Part shown: positions 20,735-47,894 of the stretch, in pieces
Layout: each line of letters opens with the position of its first letter
How positions within the stretch are numbered: position 1 is the first letter of the stretch
Source of the DNA: Lingula anatina
Taxonomy: Eukaryota; Animalia; Brachiopoda
Direction: 5' to 3'
NCBI GenBank assembly: GCA_051362555.1
Contig: CM120642.1
Coordinates: 9,114,001 to 9,178,000 of the forward strand
DNA length: 64,000 nucleotides
Notes under the pieces: model-generated
What the model was told of the DNA's origin: nothing
Databases searched by the model: none
The model's input: only the letters and a program-made list of their open reading frames with translations
Translations under genes and position numbers: made by a program

Positions 20735-21583
20735 GACTGGGTTCCCACACATTTAGATCGATCCATCTGGATCGACGTAACTCCCTGGGGGTTCACGCTA
20801 AATTGCTGTCAGCCGAGCAAACACAAAAATTACTTACAGCTTTTAGTAGGGGGAACAGACATTTAAGCCGGCTAAGCTGACAGCAATCTAGTGGGACTCC
20901 CCATGGGGATAGATCCATCTAAATTCTGTGGGAATGTTTCTTTAAGGGTACATTCCCAGAGATTTAGAAAGACCTAACTCCCTGGGGGTTCACAGTCAGC
21001 CGAGCGCGCACCAAATAGTTAATTACCCCCTTACAGCTTATGGTAGGCGGGACAGACGCTTCAGCCGGCTAAGCTGACAGTAATCTATGGAGACTCCCCA
21101 CAGGGATAGATCAATCTAGAATCTGTGGGAATGGGGTCTTAGGGTGCTTTCCCAGAGATTTAGATCGATCTAAAGATTAAGATTTAGATCGACCTAACTC
21201 CCTGGGGGTTCACGCTAAATTGCAGTCAGCCGAGCGGGCACCATAGTTAATTGCCCTCTTACAGCTTTTAGTAGGCGGGACAGACGCCTAAGCCGGCCAA
21301 GCTGACAGTAATCTAGTGACTCCCCACAGGGATAGATCGATCTAAACATCTATGGAAATGGGGTGTTAGAGTGCATTCCCATGGATTTAGATAGATCCAT
21401 CTAGTTCGACCCAACTCCCTGGGGGTTCACGCTAAACTGATGTCAGCTGAGCGTGCACGGTAGTTGATTACCCCTTAACAACTCTTAGTAGGCGGGACAG
21501 ACGCTTAAGCCGGCTAAGCTGACAGCAATTTAGTGAGACTCCCCATGGGGATAGATAAATCTCAAGTCTGTGGGGATGGGGTC
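20735..21583. repeat. Four head-to-tail copies of a ~195-225 bp palindromic MITE-like unit
   Basis: Units start at ~20735, 20946, 21142 and 21369, each separated by TTA/TAA. Each has terminal inverted repeats (TTCCCA-AGATTTAGAT ... ATCTA-A-TCTGTGGGAA) and internal arms (TGCTGTCAGC ... GCTGACAGCA). Confidence 0.85.
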
Positions 21584-22217: not shown

Positions 22218-24603
<2,386 letters not shown>

Positions 24604-26391: not shown

Positions 26392-27938
26392 ATGAATAGT
26401 TGGATGTTTTTAGTGTTGATGCTGACTGTCTGTTGTCACATTGTGAAGTCAGAAGGTGAAGCGGAACCTGTAGAAACTGAAAAAAAGGTAAAGAAAATTT
26501 ACAATAGTATTTCATGATATATAATGATTTCACATTTTTTGCTGTGGTGGATAAGATCTTTTTATAATTTAGTCTAAAATCACTTACAGTCCTGGTCCTG
26601 AAATATTTATTGTTTGCATGTTTGTGTCACTGAATGTCGTATGATCATATTTGTGGTAATTTGTATAAATGTGTAATTAAATCTTCATTTACTGTTGTTG
26701 TAGGTCCAGTATTTCCCACCAGAAATTTCTGGAAGTCCACATTTCTTAGAGACATTTGATGATCCTGGTGTTTTGAATAATAAGTAAGAAAGTAAACTAG
26801 TTAAATCTTTTATAAGTTTCAAGCAAAGGAAGTGTTCTTTGGGCATTGCAGTAAAAATAAACCATGTAATGATTAATTGCAGTGCTGTCATTGTAAGCCC
26901 TTTATACTTAATGATAATGCTGGGTTTCAGTAAATGAGTCTAAAACCACATAAAATTACTAATGAAAACCACACTAGTAAAATATAATGTATTAAAACAC
27001 ATCAAATTATGTTAGGTATTTTTTAAAATAATGAAATGAATAGTGAAATTGTCAAATGCACATTACAATGATTTAACTTATAATTGTTTTTAGATGCCCT
27101 ACATCTACATTTGATGGAATAATGATCATAGGATTTTTAAGTCATAACATTTTAGAATATTTCCTTTTATTTTTCTGTTTAATAGTAAAATTCCCTTTGT
27201 TATAGGTGGATTTTATCAGATACAAAGAAAGATGACACAGAGGAAGCCATAGCAAAATATGAAGGTCAGGAGATAAGTTGACAGACATAAGAAATGTTCA
27301 AAGCTTTGTTTAGCTAGTCTGGCTTCACTAATATTGTTGATATGCAATGTAACACCCATTGTCCACAACCTAAACCTTCACTACCTAAATTGATGAATGC
27401 ATATCTTGATTTGAAGCACCAATCCATGACAGACTAATGACAATTTCTGATCAGGTCTGAAATATGAAAGCAGTTTTTCTCAACATAACAATAGTTGCAC
27501 ATATCCCCTCTTAGTGTTTCATTGCTGTGATGACCTAAGTTCTCCGAAAGGTTGGTGATGATGGTAATTAATGTTTATCCCAATGGCTTGGTAAACAATT
27601 ATTTAGCACAATTAGCAGAGTTCTAGTCTTAGTATGAAGAACCTCAATGTACACAAAGAGATGAGGTGAGGTAGAGGAAGTGGTTGCTGTGAGCTTGCAT
27701 AAATTAAACCTGTGGAATTCATCAGAAGTATTCTTATTCCACTACAGGCATGCTATTTCATGGCATTCGTTGTTAATTGTCTCTGCAGTGTACTTGAAAT
27801 TCATATATTGCTGCTTTGGCAATGAGTGGAATATTTTTGTTGCATTGTTTACAAATGATGAAGTAAACAAAAAGAAAATAACGGGCAAGAGTCTGACTTA
27901 AGGTAAAATGTTAAGCTCAGTTCTTCATTCTGACAGTG

Positions 27939-27982
<44 letters not shown>

Positions 27983-30900
27983 GTAGGAAAGTGGAATATT
28001 GAAGAACCAAAGTCCAACCCATTGCAGGGAGATTTGGGACTAGTATTAAAGGTGAGAGGATTAAGCATATAAAAGCACAAAAAAACTGAAGAGAATTTTT
28101 GCCAAAATACTAGGATTTTTAAGACGTAGTTACATTTCCAGAGATCAACTACTATCTGACAATTATTTCTTCATGCTTGTGCAATTCAGCTGAGCATTTT
28201 TCTCTTTTAAACATTCTCTAGTTGTATGCATGTTGTACCATTCTTAGATAACTGATATCCTTGTTCAAAAATAATTTTGTTAATACAGTAATTATGAGTA
28301 AAATTTTGTCTTTTTGTCTTTTCTAAATAAAACCCCATATTTTGGAAAAGATTTAAGAAGCATCTGTGCAATAAGAGCAAAGAACCAAACTGAACAGAAA
28401 GAATGTATACTATATTCTTCATTCCAGTCACGTGCCAAGCTTCATGCCATAGCTGCCAAGTTTACCAAGCCATTTGAGTTTACGGGTCAACAGCTGGTAG
28501 TGCAGTAAGTACTATTTATAATTACATATTCATGCTATATAATAATGATGATGATAAAAGATCTGTTCAATTTTTAACTGCTAAAAACCTAACAGTGATA
28601 ACCAATCTCATCAGATGCATTGAAATTAGTTTCAAGGTCAAATGTGATGCTCTTATAGGTTATAGATATAGTTGTGATAGTGCTGATGCCATAGCTATAT
28701 TCATTTAGTACACTTGAAAATAAATTTCCATTTAAATTGTATATGATCACCGTATCTTTGGTACGTTTGGTAACAATAATTTCCTTATACAAGCACAAAA
28801 TAATGAGGGTAATCTAATTGGACTTTGTGATATGAGTACAGTTTAATGTTTACCAAGCTGTTTTTAATCATTTATCAGTTATAGTATAAGGGAAAGAGAA
28901 CTTAATTATGCAAAATGATGCAGATAGGTTTTGTGATAAAAACACAAGTGTTACTTAGTTACGTGTCAGGAAAACATGGCACCTTCATATGCAGTTCTGT
29001 TATCAATAGGAAGTCACAATTCATGTGATAGTGAAGGTGTGTGTGTGTGGGTGGGGGGGGGGGGGGTGATTTTCAAAGCAAAATAAGAAGAAGAAATAGA
29101 AAGAATGAAAAGTCAAGAAAGAAACCCACAATAATGTTACTAATATTTTGGACAAATTGTCAGCGAATGAACAAAATATATACAAAGGATTTTAAGCATC
29201 TCAATTTCAATTTTAAAATTAGATATGAAGTGAAGTTCCAGGAAGGAATGGAGTGTGGTGGAGCCTATATCAAACTGTTATCTCATTCTAAAAACATGAA
29301 CCTGGTATGTAAACATTTTGTGTGTGGCTGAGAGTATTGGCACTTCTGCTTGGTGTTTTTAAAACTTGTTCAGTTTCTAAGTATTGCATTATTGAATTTA
29401 AATTTTGTTTGAATCAGTGTTAATGAAATAAATAAAATATTGATAAATAAAGCAGTTTTTTTTTTTGCACTGGCTAACATTTTGTATTTCCCAATAAGAT
29501 TAAATAAAATGGCATATGCATTGCACATGATATGTTGTTTAGAGATGTGTATATTCTTTCTCATTTGTTTTCAGAAAAAACTGAATGACAAGACCCCTTA
29601 CACCATCATGTTTGGCCCTGACAAGTGTGGAATGGACCACAAGCTACATTTTATTCTCAGACACACCAATAAAAAGTCAGGGCAGGCAGAGGTAAGAAAG
29701 ATATCAGAGAGATGAATGCACATGTTTTAGAGAATTTGACAGTTACAGATATGTAGAATGAAATTATGTCCAATATGATGCTTATTATGAGTTTCAGCAT
29801 GATATATTTCTCATTACTCTAAGCTCCTAGAAATTAGGTTATAATACCATCTTGCCAATTTTTTTGAAAACCAAGTTTATCACATATTTTGTAACAGGCT
29901 GTAATTTGCAGGTGTTGAAGTGAAATTTCTTTTACACAGTCCAGTTAGAATTGTGAAGAAAAGAAATACCAACTTGTGTTTTTAGAATTTAGGATATGTC
30001 TTTTCTTTTTAGGAAAAACATGCGAAAAAACCATCTGGCAGTTTGGATGGTTATTTCACAGATAAAAAGACTCATCTCTTCACTTTAGGTGGGTTAAGAT
30101 TGACATTTGCGAATTCATTTTTTAATGGGAAATAACAGGTCTTTTTACCACTTACACACTTTTGTTGGATTACTGATTGGACTTGGTAAATTAGAATAGG
30201 TTGTTCAAGAGCATTTGGAAAAATACATTTCCTCAAACAGGTTCTTTTAATACATTTTCGTCATTTAGCCTGTGATATATGAAGTGCATTGCCTTGACTG
30301 ACTTTTAAATTTGTTTCTCTCCAGTTATTGCGGATGACAATTCATTTGAGATCTATGTTGATCAAGAATTGGTTAATAGTGGTAATCTCCTGGAAGATAT
30401 GACGTAAGTTGCCTTATGTAGATAAATGTCTGTATTTATGTATAGCAGTAAAAAAGCTGTGCAAAAATATGAAATTTTTAGTCTTAAATAGAAATAAAGC
30501 TTTGCAATAGTTAAGAGATGTATCAATATTTGAATGACGTGTTACAGAAAATATTTGCAGCCAGCTAAAGGTGAAAGAAGACTTTTGTAAATCCTAAGTT
30601 CTTTGTCAGTGTTTGTGCTATTTTTCAGCCCACCAGTAAACCCACCTAAGGAAATTGAAGATAAGAATGATAAAAAGCCTGAAGACTGGGATGAAAGAGA
30701 AAAGTAAGTTTTTTGTGTAATATTTGCCACGAATTTACTAGTTTATATTTCACATTTTAGTTGGTTACAGTTGGTCACAACATGACAGAAAATGAAAAGG
30801 TACTCAAGGTTTTATTGGTTTAAAGTCTGAAGTATACCCTGTGCTTTTATGCAGCTGTATTATAAAACTTGCAAGGTTTGGTATAATATAGTTAACATTA

Positions 30901-33900
30901 AAATTTGAAACGTCATAAATTCAATCCTGATGCAATACACGTCATAATTTTCTCAGAATCCCAGATCCTGATGCTACCAAGCCAGATGACTGGGACGAGA
31001 CTCAACCAGAGACCATAGTAGATCCAGATGCCGCAAAACCAAGTGGTTGGTTGGATGACGAACCAGAGCTCATACCTGATCCAGAAGCAGAAAAACCTTC
31101 CGATTGGTAATTAGATTATTTATTTGCAATATAAATATGTAACCAGAATAGCTATATGAACGTGATATATAGTGGATCCCCCACCCCCCACGAATATTTT
31201 TAAAAAAGACTGTTTTGCAAGTCTGTGAATTTGAATTAAAATTGTTGCAGAGCAAACAAGCTATTGCTGCTATTGCAGGTCAAGCCATCTGCTGGGTAGA
31301 CCAGAGAGGCTGATAGTTATGCTATCACATATGACTTTCACTAGCATATGCAGTCTTTTTAAATCTGTCTCTGGTCTTAAATTACTTTCCACATATAGCA
31401 ACTCACTAGACATCCAGTATTAATATCATAAACTTCTCCTAGTGTATAAGGCAGTGTTGTAATTGATACTTGTTTAACAATATCAACATTGTACATTGCA
31501 GGGATGAGGACATGGACGGCGAGTGGGAAGCACCACAAATTAGTAAGACTTTCTTATTTGTGATTAAACATCATGAAAACTATTAAAGATCTAGAAGAAA
31601 TATTACTAAGTATTCTTTGTGGACATTTATACAGACATTTGTATCTGTCCTTGGTGTCTTATCAGGGGAGATAGTGGATGATGAATGATATCTACTAATG
31701 GAATCAAAATAACTAAATTTAATCACCATCTTTTAAAATAAAGATTAAATATTGTACAAATAAATTCTTGATAAGGTCCATACCTTAAAGAACAATGTAC
31801 TTAGTATTGTAATATTTTGCTTATTTAGATAGTGCTTGTTTTTATAGTTCCGTGGTGGTAATTTCAGGCAACCCCAAGTGTGAGGGTGCCCCAGGGTGCG
31901 GCAAGTGGACCCCACCCACCATCAAGAACCCCAAGTACAAGGGCAAGTGGTCTGCACCCAAGATTGACAATCCCAACTACAAGGTAAATGGTTATAAACT
32001 ATGTTAGATTATGTACCTTATGTTGAATGGAATGTTATCCAATATAATATTACAAGTTCAATCATTTTCTGTTTCATTTGACCATGTATTAAACAACCAT
32101 AAAATTCAGCAATCCTGAAAGAAAATGCCAAAGTTTATAAATGAGTACAAATGTTATAAACATGTAATGATGGAAGTTGTGTGTATCCTTTTTTTGCAGG
32201 GCAAGTGGAAACCAAGAATGATTCCAAACCCAGACTACTATGAAGATCTCACTCCATACAAAGTGACCCCATTTGTAAGTCCAGTATAGCATGATTCCTA
32301 CTTAAAAAATGTCAACTTCATCATGGGAGATATGACACTGCTTTATATATACAAGATCCAGTAAAAGTCTTCTGGATCAAATATATCTGGATATTCGGCT
32401 ATTGTAATTATGCCCCTTCCCCTCCTTCCCCCATACAGAGCTTCACACCTCAGTGCTTACATTTTTTAAGGCCACTTTCCTCTCTGTACAAAAGTACTGC
32501 AAATTACTTTCAAACAAGTCAGTGGTTGTTACTGTGAGATAAAAAAATTTGATGCATCAAACTGGAATTTCTATGCGTTTTTTAAACTTCTTTTTAATTT
32601 TTCAGTCGGCTGTAGCATTAGAGCTTTGGACAATGACAGAGGACATTTTGTTTGACAACTTCATCATCACAGACAGCAAAGCCACAGCAGACTCACTTGC
32701 TGAACAGACCTGGGCTTTGAAGAAGAAGGAGGAGGAGAAAAAAATTAACTCATCAGGAGTAAGATTGTGAAAAGAAATATTCATGATTTTATCATTTGAC
32801 TTCTTTTTTATTTTATTTTTTTATTAATTCTTTTTACTTTTAAGATTCATAAATAGCAGAAATTGAAAATTATAATGCTTTTAATTAGATATAAAATACT
32901 CAAGGCAAGTGGTAAATTTCCATTAACATTTCAGTTTGCAGTCTCTCTGCTAAAATATCCTTCAAGAAAGGAAAATGAAATCATATTCATTATATTGCAT
33001 TTGGAGTGTTGATTTTCAAAGTTTGTTAAAGATCGATAGTACATGTTTGAATTTTTTTCTTCTTTAGCTTATACATAAGCTTTATGGACAAGCATTTTCT
33101 TCAACTGATCCCTTTGTTTTCAGAAAAGTGTTATAGATGCAGTCATGGATGCTGCACAAGAGCGTCCCTGGCTCTGGGCCGTTATAGCCCTCGTAGTAAT
33201 CCTCCCTGTTGTCTTAATAGTAGCATATTGCTGTATGTCCTCTGATAAACCATCTCAGGTAAGAGGGCGAGACTGATTTGAGTCCTGTCAGCAGATGTGA
33301 GATTCAGTGGGGTCAAGGTCGTATCAAATGGATCATGGGATAGCTGGCCTACAAGTCTTCTGAATGGCTGGAAAATGTTGAAAAAAGGTTGCTTAAGATA
33401 AGCAAGCCAACACCATTTTCTGTCAAGCAGTTACCCCCACTGAGTTTCACCTTGCTGATGTTTTCATCATTTGTTTTTCAACTGTGTGTTTTCTTCTGTA
33501 GGTCGGCATATTCCGACAGTTAAAGGATGCTGCTGAGGAGCGTAAATGGCTGTGGGGTGTTTACGCATTTGTTATTCTCATGCCTGTAGTTGTTTTATCA
33601 GTTATTTGTTGTCCAAACAGAGGCCCTCTTAAGGTCAGTTTGGCCTTTGTTTATTTTATGTTATTTATCTTTTTTATTTAGTTCCTCTGAAATGAATTTA
33701 TCTATTTATTCAAAATTGCATTGAAAATTCTGATTTCATGGAGAATTTGAACTTGGAGAATTATTTGTGTCCAAATTTCTGTTGTCTGAACCTTTTAAAG
33801 TTTTAGTTTTCTTTAGTTGGTTGCATGATCTTTACTCACCAAGAGCAAAAGTAACAACAAGTAAAGTATATGAATCTGATTTGTTAGAATAAAGAAACCA

Positions 33901-36900
33901 TTGATTTTTTTCCACCAAGCTTGACATTTTATTTGAGAGGTTTTTGAGAAGTGAATGTTTCTTATCACTACAGTATGAAAGTGTTTCTTTTATCAGAAAA
34001 AGCATCAAGTAAAATTCCCTTTGAATGAAAATATGTGCAGATTGAATATATCATTTGGTATGCTTTAGGTTGATGACATTGCTGCTAGAAAAAAATTTGA
34101 TGATGAAAAGACAGAAGCAGAAGAAGAGAAAGAGGAGGAAAAAGCTGGAGAGGAAGAGAAAGCAGGTAACATTTCTGTTTTGAATTGATATGTTTTTTAA
34201 TTCTTGACAAGTAAATTAAGTAGTAAAAAAGGAAACAAGATTATTTTGCGCTTGCAAAAGCTTAATGCAAAGGAATTTTAAAGGATATCTTGAAAACAAC
34301 CAGCACATCCTTAAATTTTAAAGAATGCAGAGAGGTCTAGTTTTGAAAGTTGATATCTACAGAACAGTGTGATATTTTCTTAAAATAAAGTGATGTAAAT
34401 TGATTGATCTTAAATGTGCTGAATTAATGACAGTTAAGTTTGATTTTTAATTTTAAATTTATTTATTTTATTTTTATTTTATTTTTTATTTTTGAGACCA
34501 TTTATTAGGTTGTATTTTTTTGTATTGTAGAAGCTAGTGAAGAAAGCAAGGCAGGTGGAGATGCAGGAACAGGTGTGAGGAGAAGGACAAAGAAAAGTGA
34601 CCTAGAGGTAGAGGAGGAGGTGAGTTGTCTGTACATAGTCTGATCACCTCTGTTTATGTTGTACCTGACATCTAGCTTGACCAAATTTTACATTATATAT
34701 TCCAACATGTGTATTGACAGTGAAATTGATTTTTATGTACAGACACAGATGTGTCTGTACATATAGCCATCATCTGCGTCTGTCGTCGCCGTCGTCGCTG
34801 TCGTCGCCGCCGTCGCCGTCGCCGTGCACTTTTACCGATAACACGATAAGTGGAAAACCATTTTGCCTTTTGACTTGAAACTTGCAGAACTGATGAATAT
34901 TCATAATACGCAGGTCAAGTTCGAAAATCAGCATGATCGGGTCACTTTTAGGGAATTTATGCTGTTTTTTCACTTTTTTCAGCATATATGCAGCACCGAT
35001 AACACGATAAGTGGAAAACCATTTTACCTTTTGACTTGAAACTTACAGAACTGATGAATATTCATAATACGCAGGTCAAGTTCGAAAATCAGCATGATCG
35101 GGTCACTTTTAGGGAATTTATGCTGTTTTTTCACTTTTTTCAGCATGTATGCAGCACCGATAACATGATAAGTGGAAAACAATTTTACCTTTTGACTTGA
35201 AACTTACAGAACTGATGAATATTCATAATACGCAGGTCAAGTTCGAAAATCAGCATGATCGGGTCACTTATAGGTAATTTATGCTGTTTTTTCACTATTT
35301 TCAATATAAATGCAACACTGATAACACAATATAAGAAAAACGGATTGGCCAATTGTAATTATACTCACAGGAGTGGTCAATCTTACTAAAATGCAGGTTG
35401 AGTTCGAAAATAAGCATAATCGGGCCATTACTTAAGAAGTTATACTGATTTTTCACATTTCCTCAGATTCAATTATTAGGCATGTTAACAGTCTCATTAT
35501 TTAACTAATAAGATGCCTAAAAGTGTTTGTTTGATATTTCCTGCATCTTTACAACATTGTTAGTTGATTGTGTAAAAAACATGGTAAACTTGTTATCATG
35601 TATTGTGTAATAAAGTGTCAAAAATGGAAATAAACTCATATCATTGCAGTTTGTCATATTCAATCATCCACTATGTTCAGAATCTCAGAATGGAGGAAAT
35701 TGGACATTTAACACTGTTCTATTGATACTTTTCCCATCTCACCAATTTTCTTAGTTGGACATATAAAAATGGCAGTAAAATGTTTATATTGTTTTATGTT
35801 AAAAAAGTGTTAAAAATGGAAATAAACCCATTTCAGAACAGTGCTGTCTTGTTTACGTTTTGGCATTATCAAGGCGTGACTTTGAAGTTCCATGGGCCTG
35901 AAGACCTTTGCTAGTCACATTTTCTGAATATCTGTGATACAAATATTTTATAATAAAAAATTGATGGTCATTTAGCTGTTAAACATTATGTAATATTGCA
36001 TCAAAATTTGAAGAAACCCCTATTTTGGGCACTGCTTCCATGATGACCATTTAAGGAAAATCATGTCACTTACTGTTCTCAAACTTACAGGAAAGAAAAA
36101 TGGGACTAAAATACAGCTTCAGTAGGCAATGCAGTCTGTTTGGTATTTTTATGTACAGACACAGATGTGTCTGTACATATTGCCATCACCTGCGTCTGTC
36201 GTCGCCGATGGCGATGGCGATGCCGATGCCGATGCCGGCGCCGTGCACTTTCCTTGTAAACACGATAAGTGGAGGGCAGTTTTACTTTTTGGCTTTATAT
36301 TTACAGAGCTGATGAATATTCATAAAACGCAGGTCAAGTTCGAAAATCAGCATGATCGGGCCATTATTGTAGAAGTTATGCTGTTTTTTCACTTTTCAGC
36401 ATATTTTTCACATTTCCTCAGATTCAATTCTTAGGCATGTTAACAGTCTCATTATTAAACTAATAAGATACGTAAAAGTGTTTGTTTGACATTTCCTGCA
36501 TCTTTACAACATTGTTAGTTGATTTTGTAAAAATGATGGTAAACTTGTTATCGTATTGTGTAATAAAGTTTCAAAAATGGAAATAAACTCATATCATTGC
36601 AGTTTGTCAGATTGAATTATTCACTATGTTCAGAATCTCAGAATGGAAGAAATTGGACATTTAACACTGCTCTGTTGATATTTTTCCCATCTCATCAATT
36701 TTCTTAGTTGATAATATAAAAATGGCAGTTAACTGTTAATTTTGTTTTATGTTAAAAATTGTTAAAAATGGAAAAAAAAAACATTTCAGAACAGTGCTGT
36801 CTTGTTTACATTTTGGCATTTTCAAGTTGTGACTTTGAAGTTCCATGGGCCTAAAGACCTTTGCTAGTCACATTTTCTGAATATCCATGATACTAATATT

Positions 36901-38524
36901 TTATTATTAAAAATTGATGGTCAATATGCTGTTAAACGTTATGTAATATTGCATCAAAATTTGAAAAAAAACTATTTTGGGCACTGCTCCCATGATGACC
37001 ATTTAAGAAAAACCATGTAACTTACTGTTCTCAAACAGTACAGTAAATATGTACAGATGTGTCTGTACATATTGCCATCACCTGCGTCTGTCGTCGCCGT
37101 CATCGCTGTTGCCGGCACCTTGCACTTTCATTGTAAACACGATAAGTGGAAGGCAGTTTTACTTTTGGGCTTCATATTTAAAGAGCTGATGAATATTCAT
37201 AAAATGCAGGTCAAGTTCGAAAATCAGGATGATCGGGCCATTATTGTAGAAGTTATGCTTTTTTCTTTCACTTTTCAACATATATGCAACACTGTAAACA
37301 CATTTCAAGGAAAACCGATAGGCCTGTTGTCGTGAAACTCTCAGGAGTAATCGATCTTACTAAAACGGAGGTCAAGTTCGAAAATTGGCATGCAGCCTGA
37401 GTTGGAAAAGCAGTCTAATTGGCTTCTTTTTCTGGAAGTTATACATTTTCAAAGTGTGAACTTGAACTCTCATGGGCCTGAAGCCTTATGCTTGTTACAC
37501 ATTTTACTTTCATTGGTATTACCTGTTGAGCATAATTAAAATTTGATGTTGAATTTACAGTTTAACATAATGTACTTTTGCATCAGAATAAACAGTAGCC
37601 TATTTTGTGCATAGTTATTTCCTGCTTTTTGTCTGTACATTTGACAGCTTTGCTGCCTTGTTATTTATTTATTTATTTATTTTGACAGTTAAACAGTTTT
37701 TTGTGAAAATTTAATTTTTCACATATTGGCATTTTCAAGGTGTGACTTTAAAGTTCCATGATCTTGAAGACTTTTGCTTGTCACATTTTCTGAATGTCCA
37801 TGTTACTAATATTTTATTAATAACATTTGATTGTCATTATGCTGTTAAACATTATGTAATGTTGCATCAAAATTTGAAGAAACCCCTATTTTGGGCACTG
37901 CTCCTATGATGACCATTTAAGGGAAATCATGTCACTTACTGTTCTCAAACTTACAGGAAAGAAACATGGGTCTAACATACAGCTTCAATAGGCAACGCAG
38001 TCTGTTTGGTAAATTTTTCTGGCAATTTAACAGTTTTTTGTGAAAATTTAATTTTTCACTTATTTGCATCTTTATTTTCTGTTCTTTGTCTGTACATTTG
38101 ACAGCTTTGCTGCCTTGTTATTATTTAACAACAGCTTTATTATCTAAAAAATTGTCTCAGAACAAGGAAGGTGATGATGAAGAGGAAGAAGAAGAGGAAG
38201 CTAGTGAGTCACAAAGCAATAGTTCACCAAGGTAAGCATTTTTTATCATTTAGATGTACAGCTATTTCTTACAAATTGCAAATTAATTACAGTGATGTGT
38301 TATAATAGATAAAAAATAATAACGAAACAAAAGAAGTAACCATTTCTGTACAGTGTATACAAAATACTTGTGTAATGGGTCTCATATTTTTGACATAATT
38401 AATCAGAACTTTTTTCTCATTCATGAGTCTTTTAATATTTCTATTGGGGTGAAAAATTTAATTTAATCCTATGTTTTTGCTTTTCAGAAAATCTCCTAGG
38501 AAAAGAAAACCAAGAAAGGACTAG
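26392..38524 (+). CDS. CANX: Calnexin; exons 26392-26487, 26704-26783, 27206-27264, 27987-28051, 28428-28504, 29223-29304, 29575-29691, 30013-30088, 30325-30403, 30629-30703, 30957-31106, 31502-31542, 31868-31983, 32200-32274, 32606-32758, [33124-33258 or 33502-33633], 34069-34165, 34531-34619, 38161-38231, 38488-38524
   Basis: Signal peptide; lectin motifs [20 protein letters not shown] and [11 protein letters not shown]; P-domain repeats ([35 protein letters not shown]); ERPWLW-TM-CC; acidic tail ending [14 protein letters not shown]. Confidence 0.96.
27938..27981. repeat. (TTA)n microsatellite directly before a calnexin acceptor
   Basis: Direct reading; it abuts TGTAG|GAAAG at 27987. Confidence 0.9.
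33124..33258 (+). CDS. CANX: Calnexin transmembrane exon A
   Basis: 135 nt, phase 0-0, cag|...|gtaag. Encodes [45 protein letters not shown]. Confidence 0.9.
33502..33633 (+). CDS. CANX: Calnexin transmembrane exon B (paralogous alternative exon)
   Basis: 132 nt, phase 0-0, tag|...|gtcagt. Encodes [44 protein letters not shown]. Confidence 0.85.
34731..38119 (+). mobile_element. Helentron/HINE-like non-autonomous element, family B, with a nested family-B copy (36147-37662), in a calnexin intron
   Basis: 5' hairpin TATGTACAGACACA-G-ATGTGTCTGTACATA; (GTCGCC/GATGCC)n microsatellite; 161-bp tandem units (CAGGT at 34911, 35072, 35233, 35394); 3' subTIR TGTCTGTACAT followed by stem-loop GACAGC-TTT-GCTGCC and TTGTT. 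T-rich insertion site with no TSD. Confidence 0.8.
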
Positions 38525-42200: not shown

Positions 42201-43042
42201 GGGTTATCTTCTTCATTGTGTTTGATGCCCTTTACTGATAGTATTATCTTTGTATATTATGAAACAATTTAACTTAATTAACTGCATTTCCAGAAATCTT
42301 GTGAAATTAATAGACCGACAACTTTAGCAATGTCCACCTGTGAAGAAAGAGGTGCTCTCAGTGGTATGTTTTATTTACATTTATAATTTCTTTTTGTTTT
42401 CCAATTTTCTTTATTTCTGTTTATAGTTGAAGCATTCATTTAAACTTTGATTTTTATTATTTGCCGATTTATCAGTTTCAGTTGTTATATTCTGAAGAGT
42501 TTTCAGTATTATTGTCATTCACTTAAATTTCTTTCGTCATATATATTAACAAATTCTAAGTATGTCCAATGGGCAAATTAATGTAACTTATTAAAAATTT
42601 TACATGATAAATGATAATAAATATATGCAATACATATTTCTTATGAAAACAGATTGCAGTGATTAATGCCTGACATTTCATTGAAGGGTTTGGAAATCCA
42701 CTCTGTACTCCTAGAGGGGAGGAAAACACATCCCCTGGGCCAACAGGAGTGTCACCAGAGTCACAAGAACTGTCACCAAGGTCCCAAGAAAGACTAAGGC
42801 AGCTTAAAATAGATTTGTCACAAGGGAAAGGTGTGTCAGTGTTTTACGTGATAGCTTTGGACCCAGTGTTGGACAGTTTGGTACTATAGTAGCCTGATAG
42901 TGAAGTTTTAAAAAAAAATTTTTTTGATTATCAGTATCATATGATTAATCACATTTTAATATACCTTGCAATACATATCAGTATGGAATTCCCTGATACT
43001 AATTAATATTGTTATAGTAATGATATTTGGAGGCATTTAATT
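39283..43042 (+). repeat. Segmental duplication, copy 1 (upstream region and first exons of the kinase); copy 2 at 49835-56551
   Basis: Homology starts at AATAATCAGAAAAACAGC in both copies (39283 and 49835) and is colinear once the TE insertions are removed. Confidence 0.92.
40022..41186. mobile_element. Kolobok-like non-autonomous DNA transposon (TTAA TSD, GG...CC termini)
   Basis: TTAA at 40018-40021 and 41187-41190. Imperfect TIRs GGATGTAGATAACAG / CTGTTAATTACTACC. The paralogous site at ~50545-50565 is empty. Confidence 0.75.
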
Positions 43043-43492
43043 GGAATTTAGATCATAATTGAATAAAACTATTCACTTGGATTTGATAATGATTAATCTA
43101 ATTAAGTTTCTGCAAAACAGTAATTCTACAAAGTGCTGCATTTCAAAAACAGGTTCATTATTTATCATTACATACAATATATCTTGATTTTCAGCTAAAC
43201 TTGAATATGACAAGAATAACAAAGTCCACGTGAATTACTGTGATGATAAATCTGGCCAATTCAAGTATGTCATATGATTTGTAGGACACATATTCAAGAC
43301 TATTTTAATTGTTAATTAATAAAGTTTTACATAAACTTTGAAAGATGTACAAATCATGTCTTCATTTGTTTTCTTAATGAACCAAGAAATTGATTGTAGC
43401 TAATAAATTCAAATTGGTATGCCATCAATGCTCATACATTTATAAATAATGTTTCTCAATCAGCTCTAATTTTCAAAATATTCATTTGAAGA

Positions 43493-46374
43493 ATGAAAGA
43501 TATTGGCAAAGTATTAGAAACTGACCAGGAAAATAAAGAAGAGGTGTTGAATCGTGTAATGCAGGTCATTGAGTTCATGAAATCCCAAAATGCACCACAG
43601 GGTGTGGCTTTAAACTCTGCAAAGGTACGAGTAACAGGGAAGAATATGAAAAAGGCTTATATATCTTATTTGAATTATTTCTTGTGATTTAACAACATAT
43701 TTTTGATATAATGTAAAGACTCATTTTCAAGATTGTCATATTGGCAGGTAATTCCTGATCTCAATCTTACTCTATATTAATTATTAGCTTTCATTATGGA
43801 ATATCTTTTTGTAAGTCATAATAGAAAACAATGTTTTGTATGGACAATGTTTATGCATAATTGTTTAACAAACTCTGCTGACCTAGCTATCATCCCTAAT
43901 CAAAATAAGTGAAAAATAAAAATAAAAATGCCAGTCTAGCTAATACTTAAATATTTTAGACTAAACCACAGTATGGATACTATGAAAAAGGTCAGCATTA
44001 TACAATGAACATGGATCAAATTTTGGGAGGAGGAGTACATGGGAAAGTTGTTATGGTCTATGATGAAAAAACTGAAGAAAAGTCAGCCTTTAAAAAGGTA
44101 TGTTTTAAAAAGATGTAATTTTAGTCCTAAAATGCTGCAGATTTTGAGTGTTTGATGCTAATATATATGTTGATTTATTCGTTGAAATTTCAATGGGAAT
44201 CTGTTAAATTGTTTAATTTTACTCAATGCACTTAGTATGTCGTGTAAGTTGATGAATGGGGAAAAGCTGCTGCTCTTACTTACTAGTTATTTCTTTTTCT
44301 TTTCTTTACATTTTATATTATTTAATATCTCAGGTAATGTTACTAGACTTCAGGGAGGAGGAGATAAGAGCTTGGGTGGCTATGGAAGATAATCCACATT
44401 TTCCAGAGCTGTACATGCTAAAAGTAGAGGGAGATAAAGTATTATTATTCATGGAACCCTTACAGCCAAGTAAGCCTTTACAGTTGTTTTAAAATCTTTG
44501 AACATACATATATAGATATTGAACTACAAATATATCCAACTATGAAGGGTGTGCATACACATATCATGAAATTTAATTAAAATATATCAATTTTTTTTAC
44601 TGTATTAATTTGTTTAATTATTTGTTTATTTATCTTAGAAATAACTTTGACTGAAGTCATAGACCAGTATTTTTCCCAGCTTCAACAACAAGGTCCAGCA
44701 GCCCAGTGGTCATTTTCCATCTTTGTGGTCAAAGGTCTACTTGAAGCCATCCAAGCACTTCATGAAAAGGGGTACACACACAATGATCTTCACAGTGAGT
44801 TACAAAAACTTAGATAAAGCTGACAGTGAAAGTCACTGGAATATCTACCAGTAGAATGTGCCAATTAAAACCAAATAAATGTGTCAGATATCTAGTTCAC
44901 GCAGTTAGCCATTGGACTTCCTGTCTACACACAAATTGTACATGTACATGTATGTACAGTGTATTTCAAGGAATGGTCACAGTTATTGCCTTAAGAGGCA
45001 TTAAACAGGATTTTGAAATGAAAAAATGAACATGACTGTATTGGTTTTGAAACTCAAGCATGTAACAGACTACGTTATATCATTTAAGAGAGTTATATAT
45101 GTGTATCTTTGACTTACATGTGTAAAAGCACAGACTGTACTAATTACATTTAAGACAGCTTAATTCCCATGCCTTTTTTTATTTGCAATTTATAGACACT
45201 TCTGCAACAATACATTAATTTCTATTATATTGATTACTTTTATATTTTTGCAGCTGGTAATATTCTCCTTGAAGACACCAAGTCTAGTATGGAAGTCAAG
45301 GTTGTTGACCTTGGCCTTGCTGAGGTCATTCCTAATCCACTGACAGTGACCAGCAAGGCCAAGGTCACAGATGACCTGTGGAACATCCTGAGAACTTTCA
45401 TTGCACTTTGTGCTGGGTATACATTTGAATCCACTTATGACATGACAAAACACTGGAGAGATGCATTACATTATGTAAGTTCATTATGTTGAAAGACAAT
45501 GCATGGGTTTGCACAAATTGGCATTAATTCATTCTTGGTTTAGAAACATTTTGACAAGAAACATCTTTGCACCTCGAAATGATTGCATGCATTGAATCTT
45601 TTCTAATTCACTATTCTTTTTTTAATCACTGCAAAAAAATCTTATAAAAAAAAAAAAAAACCTTTTTGCTCTTACAGAGTTGGTGGGAAGGGGGGCTCAA
45701 AAATTAAATGACCTTTTTACAATGGCATAGAACTTAGATCAAATGTTCATTCTGTTCAAAATATTAATTAACCTTAACCTGAACTTCTTTATATATTTTC
45801 AAGGTTGATGAATCATTTCGTAAAGAATTTGAGGAAATTGTTGCTTTTTGCATTGATGCTGCTTTAAACTTTGCTACGGAGCTTCCAGCTGGAAAACTAC
45901 TTAATAAATTGAATGAGGCTGGAGACATTGCTGAAGGTGAAATTTTTTTTTTAGATATTTAAGTATCGAATAAATAAGTATTTTGAAACAAGTTTATTCT
46001 GCAAGTATACAACACTTTCACCATTAGGCAAAGGCAGAATAGGCACCGGCCTTGTCTATGATTTTCCCAGTTGATTCATTAATTTGTTATTTAGCTGACC
46101 CAGTAAGATTGGTCTGAACCCCTACCGTTTGTTCTAAGATTAATTAAAGGGATAATAACTTTTCGTATGAGATCTATATTTCACAAAAACATTTTTCAGA
46201 AAAAAAAACAAGGACTAACTTTGAATGTAAAAATGGATTCATTAACCATTGGTAAGTATGGGAAAATTGTTGTTTACTCCAGGGAAATTCATTTTTTGGC
46301 CAAAACATAGTTATTATCCCTTTTATAACCTTATTCTGTATACCATCAAATGGCTCTCTTTCCCCCTCTTTCTT

Positions 46375-46422
<48 letters not shown>

Positions 46423-47652
46423 TCATTTTGTGTCTGGTCTTATTTTAAAATTCAGGAAATTATATTAACATTTTATTTCAGACCTGAAAGATTGCATGAG
46501 TGTTTTGAAAGGTATCTTCTTTAGTGATGGTTTCATGCCAATTCACCCAGATCAGACAGACAAGGTAATTTTCACTACATTAATGTAATATAAAAAATAA
46601 GATAAGAAAATTGTCATTTTTTAAATGTAGTTATTTTTGATCAAGGCAATGTGTAGTCTATTAGTTCAAGTTTTTAACCAAACCAAATATTTGAATTCTG
46701 TTTTCAAGGAAATAAAATGCAGATTTTTATCTGCTGTTTGAATAGAAGAATTGATCTAAAAAATCTTCAACACACAGTGTTTGAATTCATCTATTTATAA
46801 TTACACCTACTGGTATCTTTAACAATTTTCTGATTTTTCACTTAGACGACTGCAGAACCCCAGGCTGTCTTTGGGGTCAATGACACACTGAGCAAGGAAG
46901 TGCATATGAATTTAACTGAGGAGCAAAAAATCGCAATTGAAAAGCTTTTCAAGCAAAAAGGATGGTCAAGTCCGGTAATTTACCTTTTTAAATTATTTAT
47001 GATATGTAAGTCGTGAAAATTTTGACATTTGACCCCACAGAAAGATGTTGTTGTTTAAATGCGCAAAATCTGTCCACCCTGTGACTTTGAAATTCCCCCT
47101 CTATAATGCTATGCCTGTATCATCCTAGATCTATGTTAAAAAAAGAAATTTTGTTTACCATCCCTGTTTACAGAGAATTGCCATTTGTTAACCAACTTAT
47201 CAATTTTGTATGACCTTATGGTATATTAGCTACTACATATTTATCAGTAACTCATGTTTTATTTTAAAATTTCTGATAGGAAATATAGAAAACATCTCAA
47301 ATTACAGCTTCATTTCTGACCTTTTAATTTTCAGATTAAATGTGAAGAATCAAGTGTCCTGGAAAGAAATTTCAATAAGATGGATCTTTTGGAAACGGTA
47401 AAAGCCTTCAATTGTACAGCTTTAATTGATGGCAGCAGCCAGAATGAGATATTTCTTTCTCAGCTGGTGGTCGATATATAATCAACTGTGATTGTTGTGT
47501 AAACAGCATGTCTAAGCTCATAGATTTGGGGGGAAATTAATACACATTTGATAATATATATTTTTATATGTTGTGAAAACAAAATTACTGAAAAAGAAAC
47601 AGTTTTGGGTACTTGTCAGGCTAGAGCTCTCCCCCCCCCCCCTCCCTGCATG

Positions 47653-47683
<31 letters not shown>

Positions 47684-47894
47684 TCATATCTTTGAAAATT
47701 AATATATGTTTGTATTCCAGGATGGAATAGAAGATACACAGTGTGACAGTTTGGACACTACAGATGGGCACAGTGTAGACCTGACTGACCATAAGGCTGG
47801 CAACAGTATGGACCAGAAACCTGCCTATAGGTCTTTAAGAATGACGTATCTGATGGGAAGACTTCATGAGTTAGAGCTCAATCTGTCTCATTAA
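43493..47894 (+). CDS. Divergent Ser/Thr kinase related to MAP3K14 (NIK) / MAP3K8 (TPL2), ~454 aa from the first in-frame ATG; exons 43492-43624, 43960-44097, 44334-44469, 44639-44794, 45254-45474, 45804-45936, 46482-46564, 46846-46974, 47335-47397, 47721-47894; upstream exons ~42294-42363, 42653-42830, 43195-43264
   Basis: G-loop LGGGVHGKV; AFKK; FREEEI; catalytic loop HNDLHTGNIL; VVDLG; DDLW. The pre-kinase motif GVALNSAKTKPQYGYYEKGQHY resembles NIK [21 protein letters not shown]. Exons are in frame with no internal stop. The true start is uncertain. Confidence 0.8.
46148..46321. mobile_element. Short Kolobok-like MITE in a kinase intron
   Basis: Perfect 13-bp TIR AGGGATAATAACT / AGTTATTATCCCT flanked by TTAA / TTTA. 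A related inverted copy lies at ~431-597. Confidence 0.7.
46374..46418. repeat. (CT)n microsatellite
   Basis: Direct reading. Confidence 0.9.

Follow-up and report, generated by a model that had tools for sequence, protein, structure and literature searches.

Among described systems, the closest to the one reported here is Drosophila Dscam1, a type I protein in which duplicated, mutually exclusive exons 17.1 and 17.2 (TM1 and TM2) each encode the entire transmembrane (TM) segment together with the juxtamembrane region (PMC7685093, PMC8042237), and in which exclusion has been attributed to steric hindrance together with RNA structure (Yue et al. 2013). A topological argument against including two such anchors in one protein is given, in general terms, by Hatje et al. 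in a survey of human mutually exclusive exons (MXEs) whose main text does not name calnexin or CANX (PMC5740500). Two properties have been assigned to the anchor of mammalian calnexin: Tyr, Thr and Leu residues on one TM face of the human protein bind non-glycosylated membrane clients, and mutation of Tyr plus Thr reduces this binding (PMC9753464); palmitoylation of both cysteines of the mammalian protein biases it towards rough ER and translocon (PMC9913998). The main text of the latter review is silent on splicing and isoforms; further papers cited for comparison are PMC6071210 and PMC13762713.

Calnexin is usually treated as a single-anchor housekeeping chaperone, but the large animal group considered here keeps two anchors. 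We describe, in the brachiopod Lingula anatina and in many molluscs, a calnexin gene that splices in either of two anchor exons, designated A and B. We are highly confident that this A/B splice switch is real, expressed and conserved. With good confidence we further conclude that the exons are copies predating the brachiopod-mollusc split, and that they yield two proteins having a common lectin domain and tail and likely differing in client binding and palmitoylation.

Two alternative anchor exons in the Lingula calnexin gene

The window, a 64,000-nucleotide stretch of Lingula anatina DNA to which all coordinates refer, contains the calnexin locus, modelled as 20 coding exons on the plus strand (26392-38524). 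The model is open through to the stop with either exon A (589 aa) or exon B (588 aa), and corresponds to the two RefSeq isoforms of L. anatina calnexin, X1 being the A form (586 of 589 residues identical) and X2 the B form (584 of 588). The exon upstream of A is 100% identical to L. anatina calnexin, the calnexin domain PF00262 is found on the matching RefSeq protein, and comparison with calnexin in PDB 8rjc gives an E-value of 7e-200. The expected make-up was confirmed: the protein has a signal peptide, the lectin and P domains, a single Pro-containing TM helix and an acidic cytosolic tail. The first 15 coding exons (26392-32758, plus strand), encoding the signal peptide, lectin and P domains and ending in phase 0, have AG/GT borders, an open frame and a match to the RefSeq Lingula protein, with junctions present in RNA reads from 31983 on. 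The shared acidic tail (34069-38524, plus strand) is encoded by four exons (34069-34165, 34531-34619, 38161-38231 and 38488-38524) with the frame open to the stop; read junctions lead into 34069 and 34531, and two reads continue from 34619 into the letters of the 38161 exon.

Between these parts, on the same strand, lie exon A (33124-33258, 135 nt), an intron of 243 nt (33259-33501) and exon B (33502-33633, 132 nt). A preliminary description made from the DNA letters had proposed two phase 0-0 exons of these lengths and spacing with good splice sites, and this holds: both exons have AG/GT borders and the phase that it gave. The translations also bear out the motifs it read in both: each exon encodes a whole anchor with a WLW motif, a hydrophobic helix containing a central Pro, and two cysteines. 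The two peptides score 93 in global alignment, whereas 2000 shuffles average -10 and reach at most 24.5; pS and pN, taken across 34 core codons, are 0.70 and 0.36. The pair thus shows the features by which tandem duplication of exons is recognized, being adjacent and homologous, of similar length and of the same phase. Inclusion of both exons, or of neither, also keeps the frame, and the A+B form contains no stop, so that a frame shift cannot enforce their exclusion.

Use of the exons was followed in four (X1, X4, X7 and X8) of nine Lingula-labelled RNA runs, aligned to 31800-34800 from a sample of about 6% of X1 and X4 and about 25% of X7 and X8. A joint was listed only if at least three reads at two starts supported it in a run. 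All four junctions foreseen in the preliminary description (32758>33124, 32758>33502, 33258>34069 and 33633>34069) occur in the reads. In run order, joints from the upstream exon to A numbered 9, 7, 27 and 16 (total 59) and to B 4, 0, 7 and 6 (total 17, of which 12 come from a row displaced by an allele where exon B begins); those from A to the downstream exon numbered 40, 14, 12 and 13 (total 79) and from B 6, 1, 1 and 16 (total 24). Neither the A-to-B joint (33258>33502) nor one skipping both exons was listed in the four runs, the limit being three reads per run, such that up to eight A-to-B reads over the four could go unlisted. Entry and exit counts stand in like ratio for A (59/79) and B (17/24), so there is no excess pointing to hidden co-inclusion.

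The exons are therefore expressed as alternatives in Lingula, as MXEs are defined: each is joined to both flanking exons, and co-inclusion and double skipping are absent or rare. Mutually exclusive use, proposed earlier on grounds of topology, is upheld by these junctions, with the qualification that RefSeq isoforms X1 and X2 of Ostrea edulis carry both exons. Exon A supplies the major form and exon B the minor form, with 41 of 179 junction reads (17, 5, 17 and 43% by run); B share varies significantly between the runs when reads are counted (p 0.0004) but not clearly when distinct starts are (p 0.065).

Some alleles in the RNA runs depart from the window. Several sites are fixed for a different state in runs X7 and X8, among them those giving Ile>Val, Ala>Thr and Val>Ile within exon A and the opening codon of exon B; a tail exon in X1 and X4 has an allele with 6 inserted bases (34123). 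These differences (33124-33633 and 34123) leave the diagnostic anchor residues unchanged.

By eye, tandem ubiquitin-coding, polyubiquitin-like repeats occupy 22220-24560 on the minus strand, with one more copy past a gap, head to head with calnexin and about 1.8 kb from it; a further tandem repeat at 20760-21580 has units of about 180 nt with internal inverted parts. A repeat bearing GTC/GCC runs occurs several times in the long calnexin intron (34730-38100), and reads at 34729-34800 pile up to 10-40x exon depth with loose ends, so that this family is transcribed at many loci. Downstream of calnexin, on the plus strand (42300-47850), is a spliced gene with kinase-like motifs, the last part of which matches XP_013389415, a protein grouped in the calnexin cluster beside a 1194-aa fused model.

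The A-B intron and possible mechanisms of exclusion

With a GC content of 0.43, the intron between the anchors lies above the range of 0.24-0.35 spanned by 18 others in this gene (one intron of more than 800 nt being set aside). It also folds better than its shuffled counterparts (z -3.45, 0 of 200 shuffles reaching its value; repeat runs gave z -3.35 and -2.77), a property shared by one of the 18 other introns (31107-31501, z -3.2). The predicted stem has 8 + 16 pairs, 24 in all, formed by a 5' arm at 33287-33312 and a 3' arm at 33435-33459, both on the plus strand; pair probabilities in the 5' arm, which is part of inverted repeat I9, are 0.70-1.0, and the 16-pair helix was attained by 2 of 300 shuffles. 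The duplex of the two arms is put at -39.7 kcal/mol, the best other partners giving -23.6 and -22.1 kcal/mol. Within the 3' arm lies the branch site predicted for exon B (33455-33459), a consensus match whose adenine, 33458, is covered by the end of the stem with a pair probability of 0.96.

From this predicted branch point to the 5' splice site of exon A the distance is 200 nt along the intron, but about 30 nt if the stem forms; a steric limit of 50 nt has been given for the distance between 5' splice site and branch point (PMC5740500). A mechanism may be sketched in which the stem in the 243-nt intron pairs with the branch site of exon B and would bring it to about 30 nt from the 5' splice site of exon A, a placement that would block joining of A to B and make A the default exon. 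As a model built on predicted folding, we give this account of exclusion in Lingula a chance close to even, on the lower side.

Splicing proteins might instead bring about exclusion, as might a distant branch point close to exon A if the stem loops out the intervening AGs; in either case the proximal branch site would not be masked. We consider this quite possible, with the odds somewhat against it. A second branch consensus is present at 33273-33277 (intron position 18, the adenine lying 18 nt from the 5' site), and distant branch points are reported to enforce exclusion of OGDH exons 4a and 4b (PMC7969005). The comparative data also lean this way. Of 33 metagenome loci recovered, four are genomic (L001, L025, L006 and L007), each having A followed by B in the order seen in Lingula, and a conserved stem was sought in all four and not found (z +0.2 in L001, +1.1 in L025, and -1.7 and -1.8 in L006 and L007). 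Against it, the AG-free zone before exon B extends for only 57 nt, so that even a distant branch point would depend on the stem, and the proximal branch consensus is exactly where the 3' arm stops.

No docking or selector partner stood out in the flanking introns, and Rfam returned one chance match (E 0.95) in the upstream exon and none on the stem. In L001 the A-B intron is 76 nt long and its predicted branch point, a consensus match, lies at 35 nt from the 5' site, an arrangement that fits a steric block operating without a stem; a branch point within about 50 nt of the 5' site was not evident in L025, L006 or L007. The closely related, bivalve-like loci L006 (120-299) and L007 (2505-2684) differ at five sites over the initial 180 nt of this intron, fewer than in its middle, and it opens in both with a GC-rich hairpin close to the exon A 5' splice site.

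Ancestry and residue patterns of the anchors

Separate A-only and B-only RefSeq isoforms are present in 15 species of brachiopods and molluscs, comprising Lingula, four oysters, Ruditapes, three Mytilus, four Haliotis, Patella and Aplysia, and both forms from Bradybaena are in GenBank. A HMMER search with the exon B peptide gave 37 matches, headed by a Mya arenaria model with A and B in tandem, and a profile of 14 B-type segments matched 51 proteins, where a word-based query made from only the exon B peptide had given no match. No B-type protein from a named annelid, cephalopod, arthropod or deuterostome was among the matches, which is weak evidence as to range. The conservation in related invertebrates that the preliminary description called for is thus borne out by named isoforms and by the four genomic loci. 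Of the observations it said would overturn its proposal, namely absence of exon B reads along with lack of conservation, or routine co-inclusion, none was made.

A tree of 45 anchors, built from the few available columns (41), included 13 A segments, 13 B segments and 16 outgroup rows with one anchor each; in 5 of the 13 species the A or B label was given by likeness and not by genomic order. The A segments group together with support of 99/95 and the B segments with 94/97, and in all 12 other pairs each exon is nearer its orthologues than its paralogue. A duplication specific to Lingula was rejected, with p-AU 0.033 for a clade uniting Lingula A and B. Since A and B fall in separate clades, one duplication older than the divergence of brachiopods and molluscs is indicated, and such an event would explain the A/B pattern. 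That divergence is Cambrian or earlier.

Substitutions between the Lingula exons and their relatives give pN of 0.12-0.35 against pS of 0.63-0.99, synonymous sites being near saturation, in agreement with the selection on both exons claimed at the outset; among close pairs there are 4, 2 and 2 synonymous changes and no nonsynonymous ones. As judged from these counts, both exons are conserved under purifying selection. The substitution pattern and the junction reads together rule out exon B as a dead relic.

The residues that separate the two classes were placed by mapping the anchor columns onto mammalian calnexin through PDB 8rjc, with Pro494, Cys502 and Cys503 numbered as in PMC9913998. Both anchors have in common the WLW motif, a central Leu/Met-Pro kink and the last Cys, which is kept in all 26. 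The luminal Tyr at TM position 6 is absent from all 13 A segments but present in all 13 B segments and in 15 of 16 single-exon outgroup rows. At the cytosolic end the pattern reverses: Cys-Cys, following an invariant Tyr, occurs in 13/13 A and 2/13 B. The preliminary description had placed a Cys-Cys module in each exon, which holds for Lingula, but in relatives exon A alone keeps it; exon B usually lacks the first of the two canonical cysteines, with Cys-x-Cys in 9 of 13. Ser and Pro are found in every B and no A segment, and most B segments have Gly-Pro as well; Lingula exon B, with Ser near its cytosolic end, reads Cys-Pro-x-x-Gly-Pro where exon A ends in Tyr-Cys-Cys. Leu at TM position 12 is general (13/13 A, 11/13 B), but where mammalian YxxT has Thr, A and B alike have Val or Leu, and the full YTL/YxxT set (Tyr at TM position 6, Thr at 9 and Leu at 12) is therefore in neither exon. 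Mean hydropathy of A exceeds that of B in 11 of 13 pairs, by 0.1-0.7.

On balance we favour the view that the two anchors differ in function. Analogy with the mammalian residues suggests, with similar moderate confidence, that B keeps a Tyr-bearing face for clients inside the membrane and that A is a dually palmitoylated, more apolar anchor; the isoforms would then likely differ in membrane-client binding and in palmitoylation. Because Thr is missing from both exons, the mammalian client-binding result transfers only in part, which weakens the case for clients of B. It is also conceivable, if unlikely, that the exons are exclusive but their anchors do one job, both being kept to meet splicing or expression needs in some cells. 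The retention of WLW, the Leu/Met-Pro kink and the last Cys in both anchors, together with their close mean hydropathy, accords with this view, as does the finding that the two Dscam anchors differ by localisation and not biochemistry (PMC7685093). Opposed to it are the class-specific invariant residues, which hold over brachiopod, bivalves and gastropods, and the greater proximity of each exon to its orthologues already described.

We regard as very unlikely the proposal that exclusion is not strict and that some species make a real A+B isoform, a two-pass calnexin with its acidic tail in the ER lumen. It is supported by Ostrea edulis, where RefSeq X1 (XP_056010540) and X2 (XP_048778294) contain both exons, RefSeq alternative isoforms being usually based on RNA-seq introns, and by the unbroken A+B frame of the Lingula gene model; A+B also appears in models from Mytilus coruscus, Magallana gigas (three UniRef entries) and Mya arenaria (partial) and in the fused Lingula model. 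Such forms make up 7 of 110 proteins of at least 400 aa, and other than the two from O. edulis they are genome-project or UniRef models, one of them fused to a neighbouring gene. Gene predictors readily fuse in-frame duplicated exons. The four Lingula runs listed no A-to-B row beside 79 reads from A to the downstream exon and 17 into B; among the cluster members listed (15 of 28 for M. gigas), 14 of the 15 species with both RefSeq isoforms have no A+B record; and the two are never joined among the 31 long proteins that come from short Logan/JGI contigs (23 B and 8 A, a set biased to B by the search and from assemblies that drop rare forms). The A+B gene models are probable annotation joins that need checking, although exclusion may be leaky in oysters.

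Comparison with known systems

A broader and more tentative proposal is one that we think more apt to fail than to hold: lophotrochozoans since the Cambrian or earlier would have divided the jobs of the anchor between a Tyr-bearing form acting as intramembrane chaperone and a Tyr-less, dually palmitoylated form for translocon and lectin work, and regulated splicing, which an RNA stem across the branch point would govern in Lingula, would tune the chaperone by tissue or stress. The exons in any case furnish a natural variant pair on an identical lectin domain and tail, suited to a swap test of the role of the anchor, and are relevant to stress studies of oysters, mussels and abalone that measure calnexin as one transcript.

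The likeness to Dscam1 in architecture does not extend to the kind of protein involved, Dscam being a receptor at the cell surface, sent to dendrites or axons by its anchors, and calnexin an ER housekeeping chaperone; nor to the exons themselves, whose differences in calnexin fall on residues that map to client binding and palmitoylation. With mammalian CANX both exons share the WLW motif, the Pro494 kink and the Cys503 position, B the Tyr of YTL, and A the Cys502-Cys503 pair. Unlike CANX, in which one anchor carries both features, they are here divided over two exons, and the Thr of YxxT is in neither.

The preliminary description knew of no earlier account of such a switch in calnexin. A literature search, covering few subscription journals and no supplements, found no paper on alternative calnexin anchor exons, but both isoforms already stand in automated RefSeq records: pairs from Lingula and molluscs (for example XP_013389410 and XP_013389412) are the identical two isoforms, annotated as X1 and X2, without statement of exclusivity, A/B orthology, age or residue differences. 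The novelty lies in recognising, for a core ER chaperone, a single ancient A/B switch together with its residue pattern, the isoforms themselves having been annotated automatically. Vertebrates also have two calnexin-type anchors in one organism, in the paralogue pair calnexin and calmegin. Unlike that whole-gene duplication, in which the lectin domain and tail differ as well, only the anchor is exchanged here.
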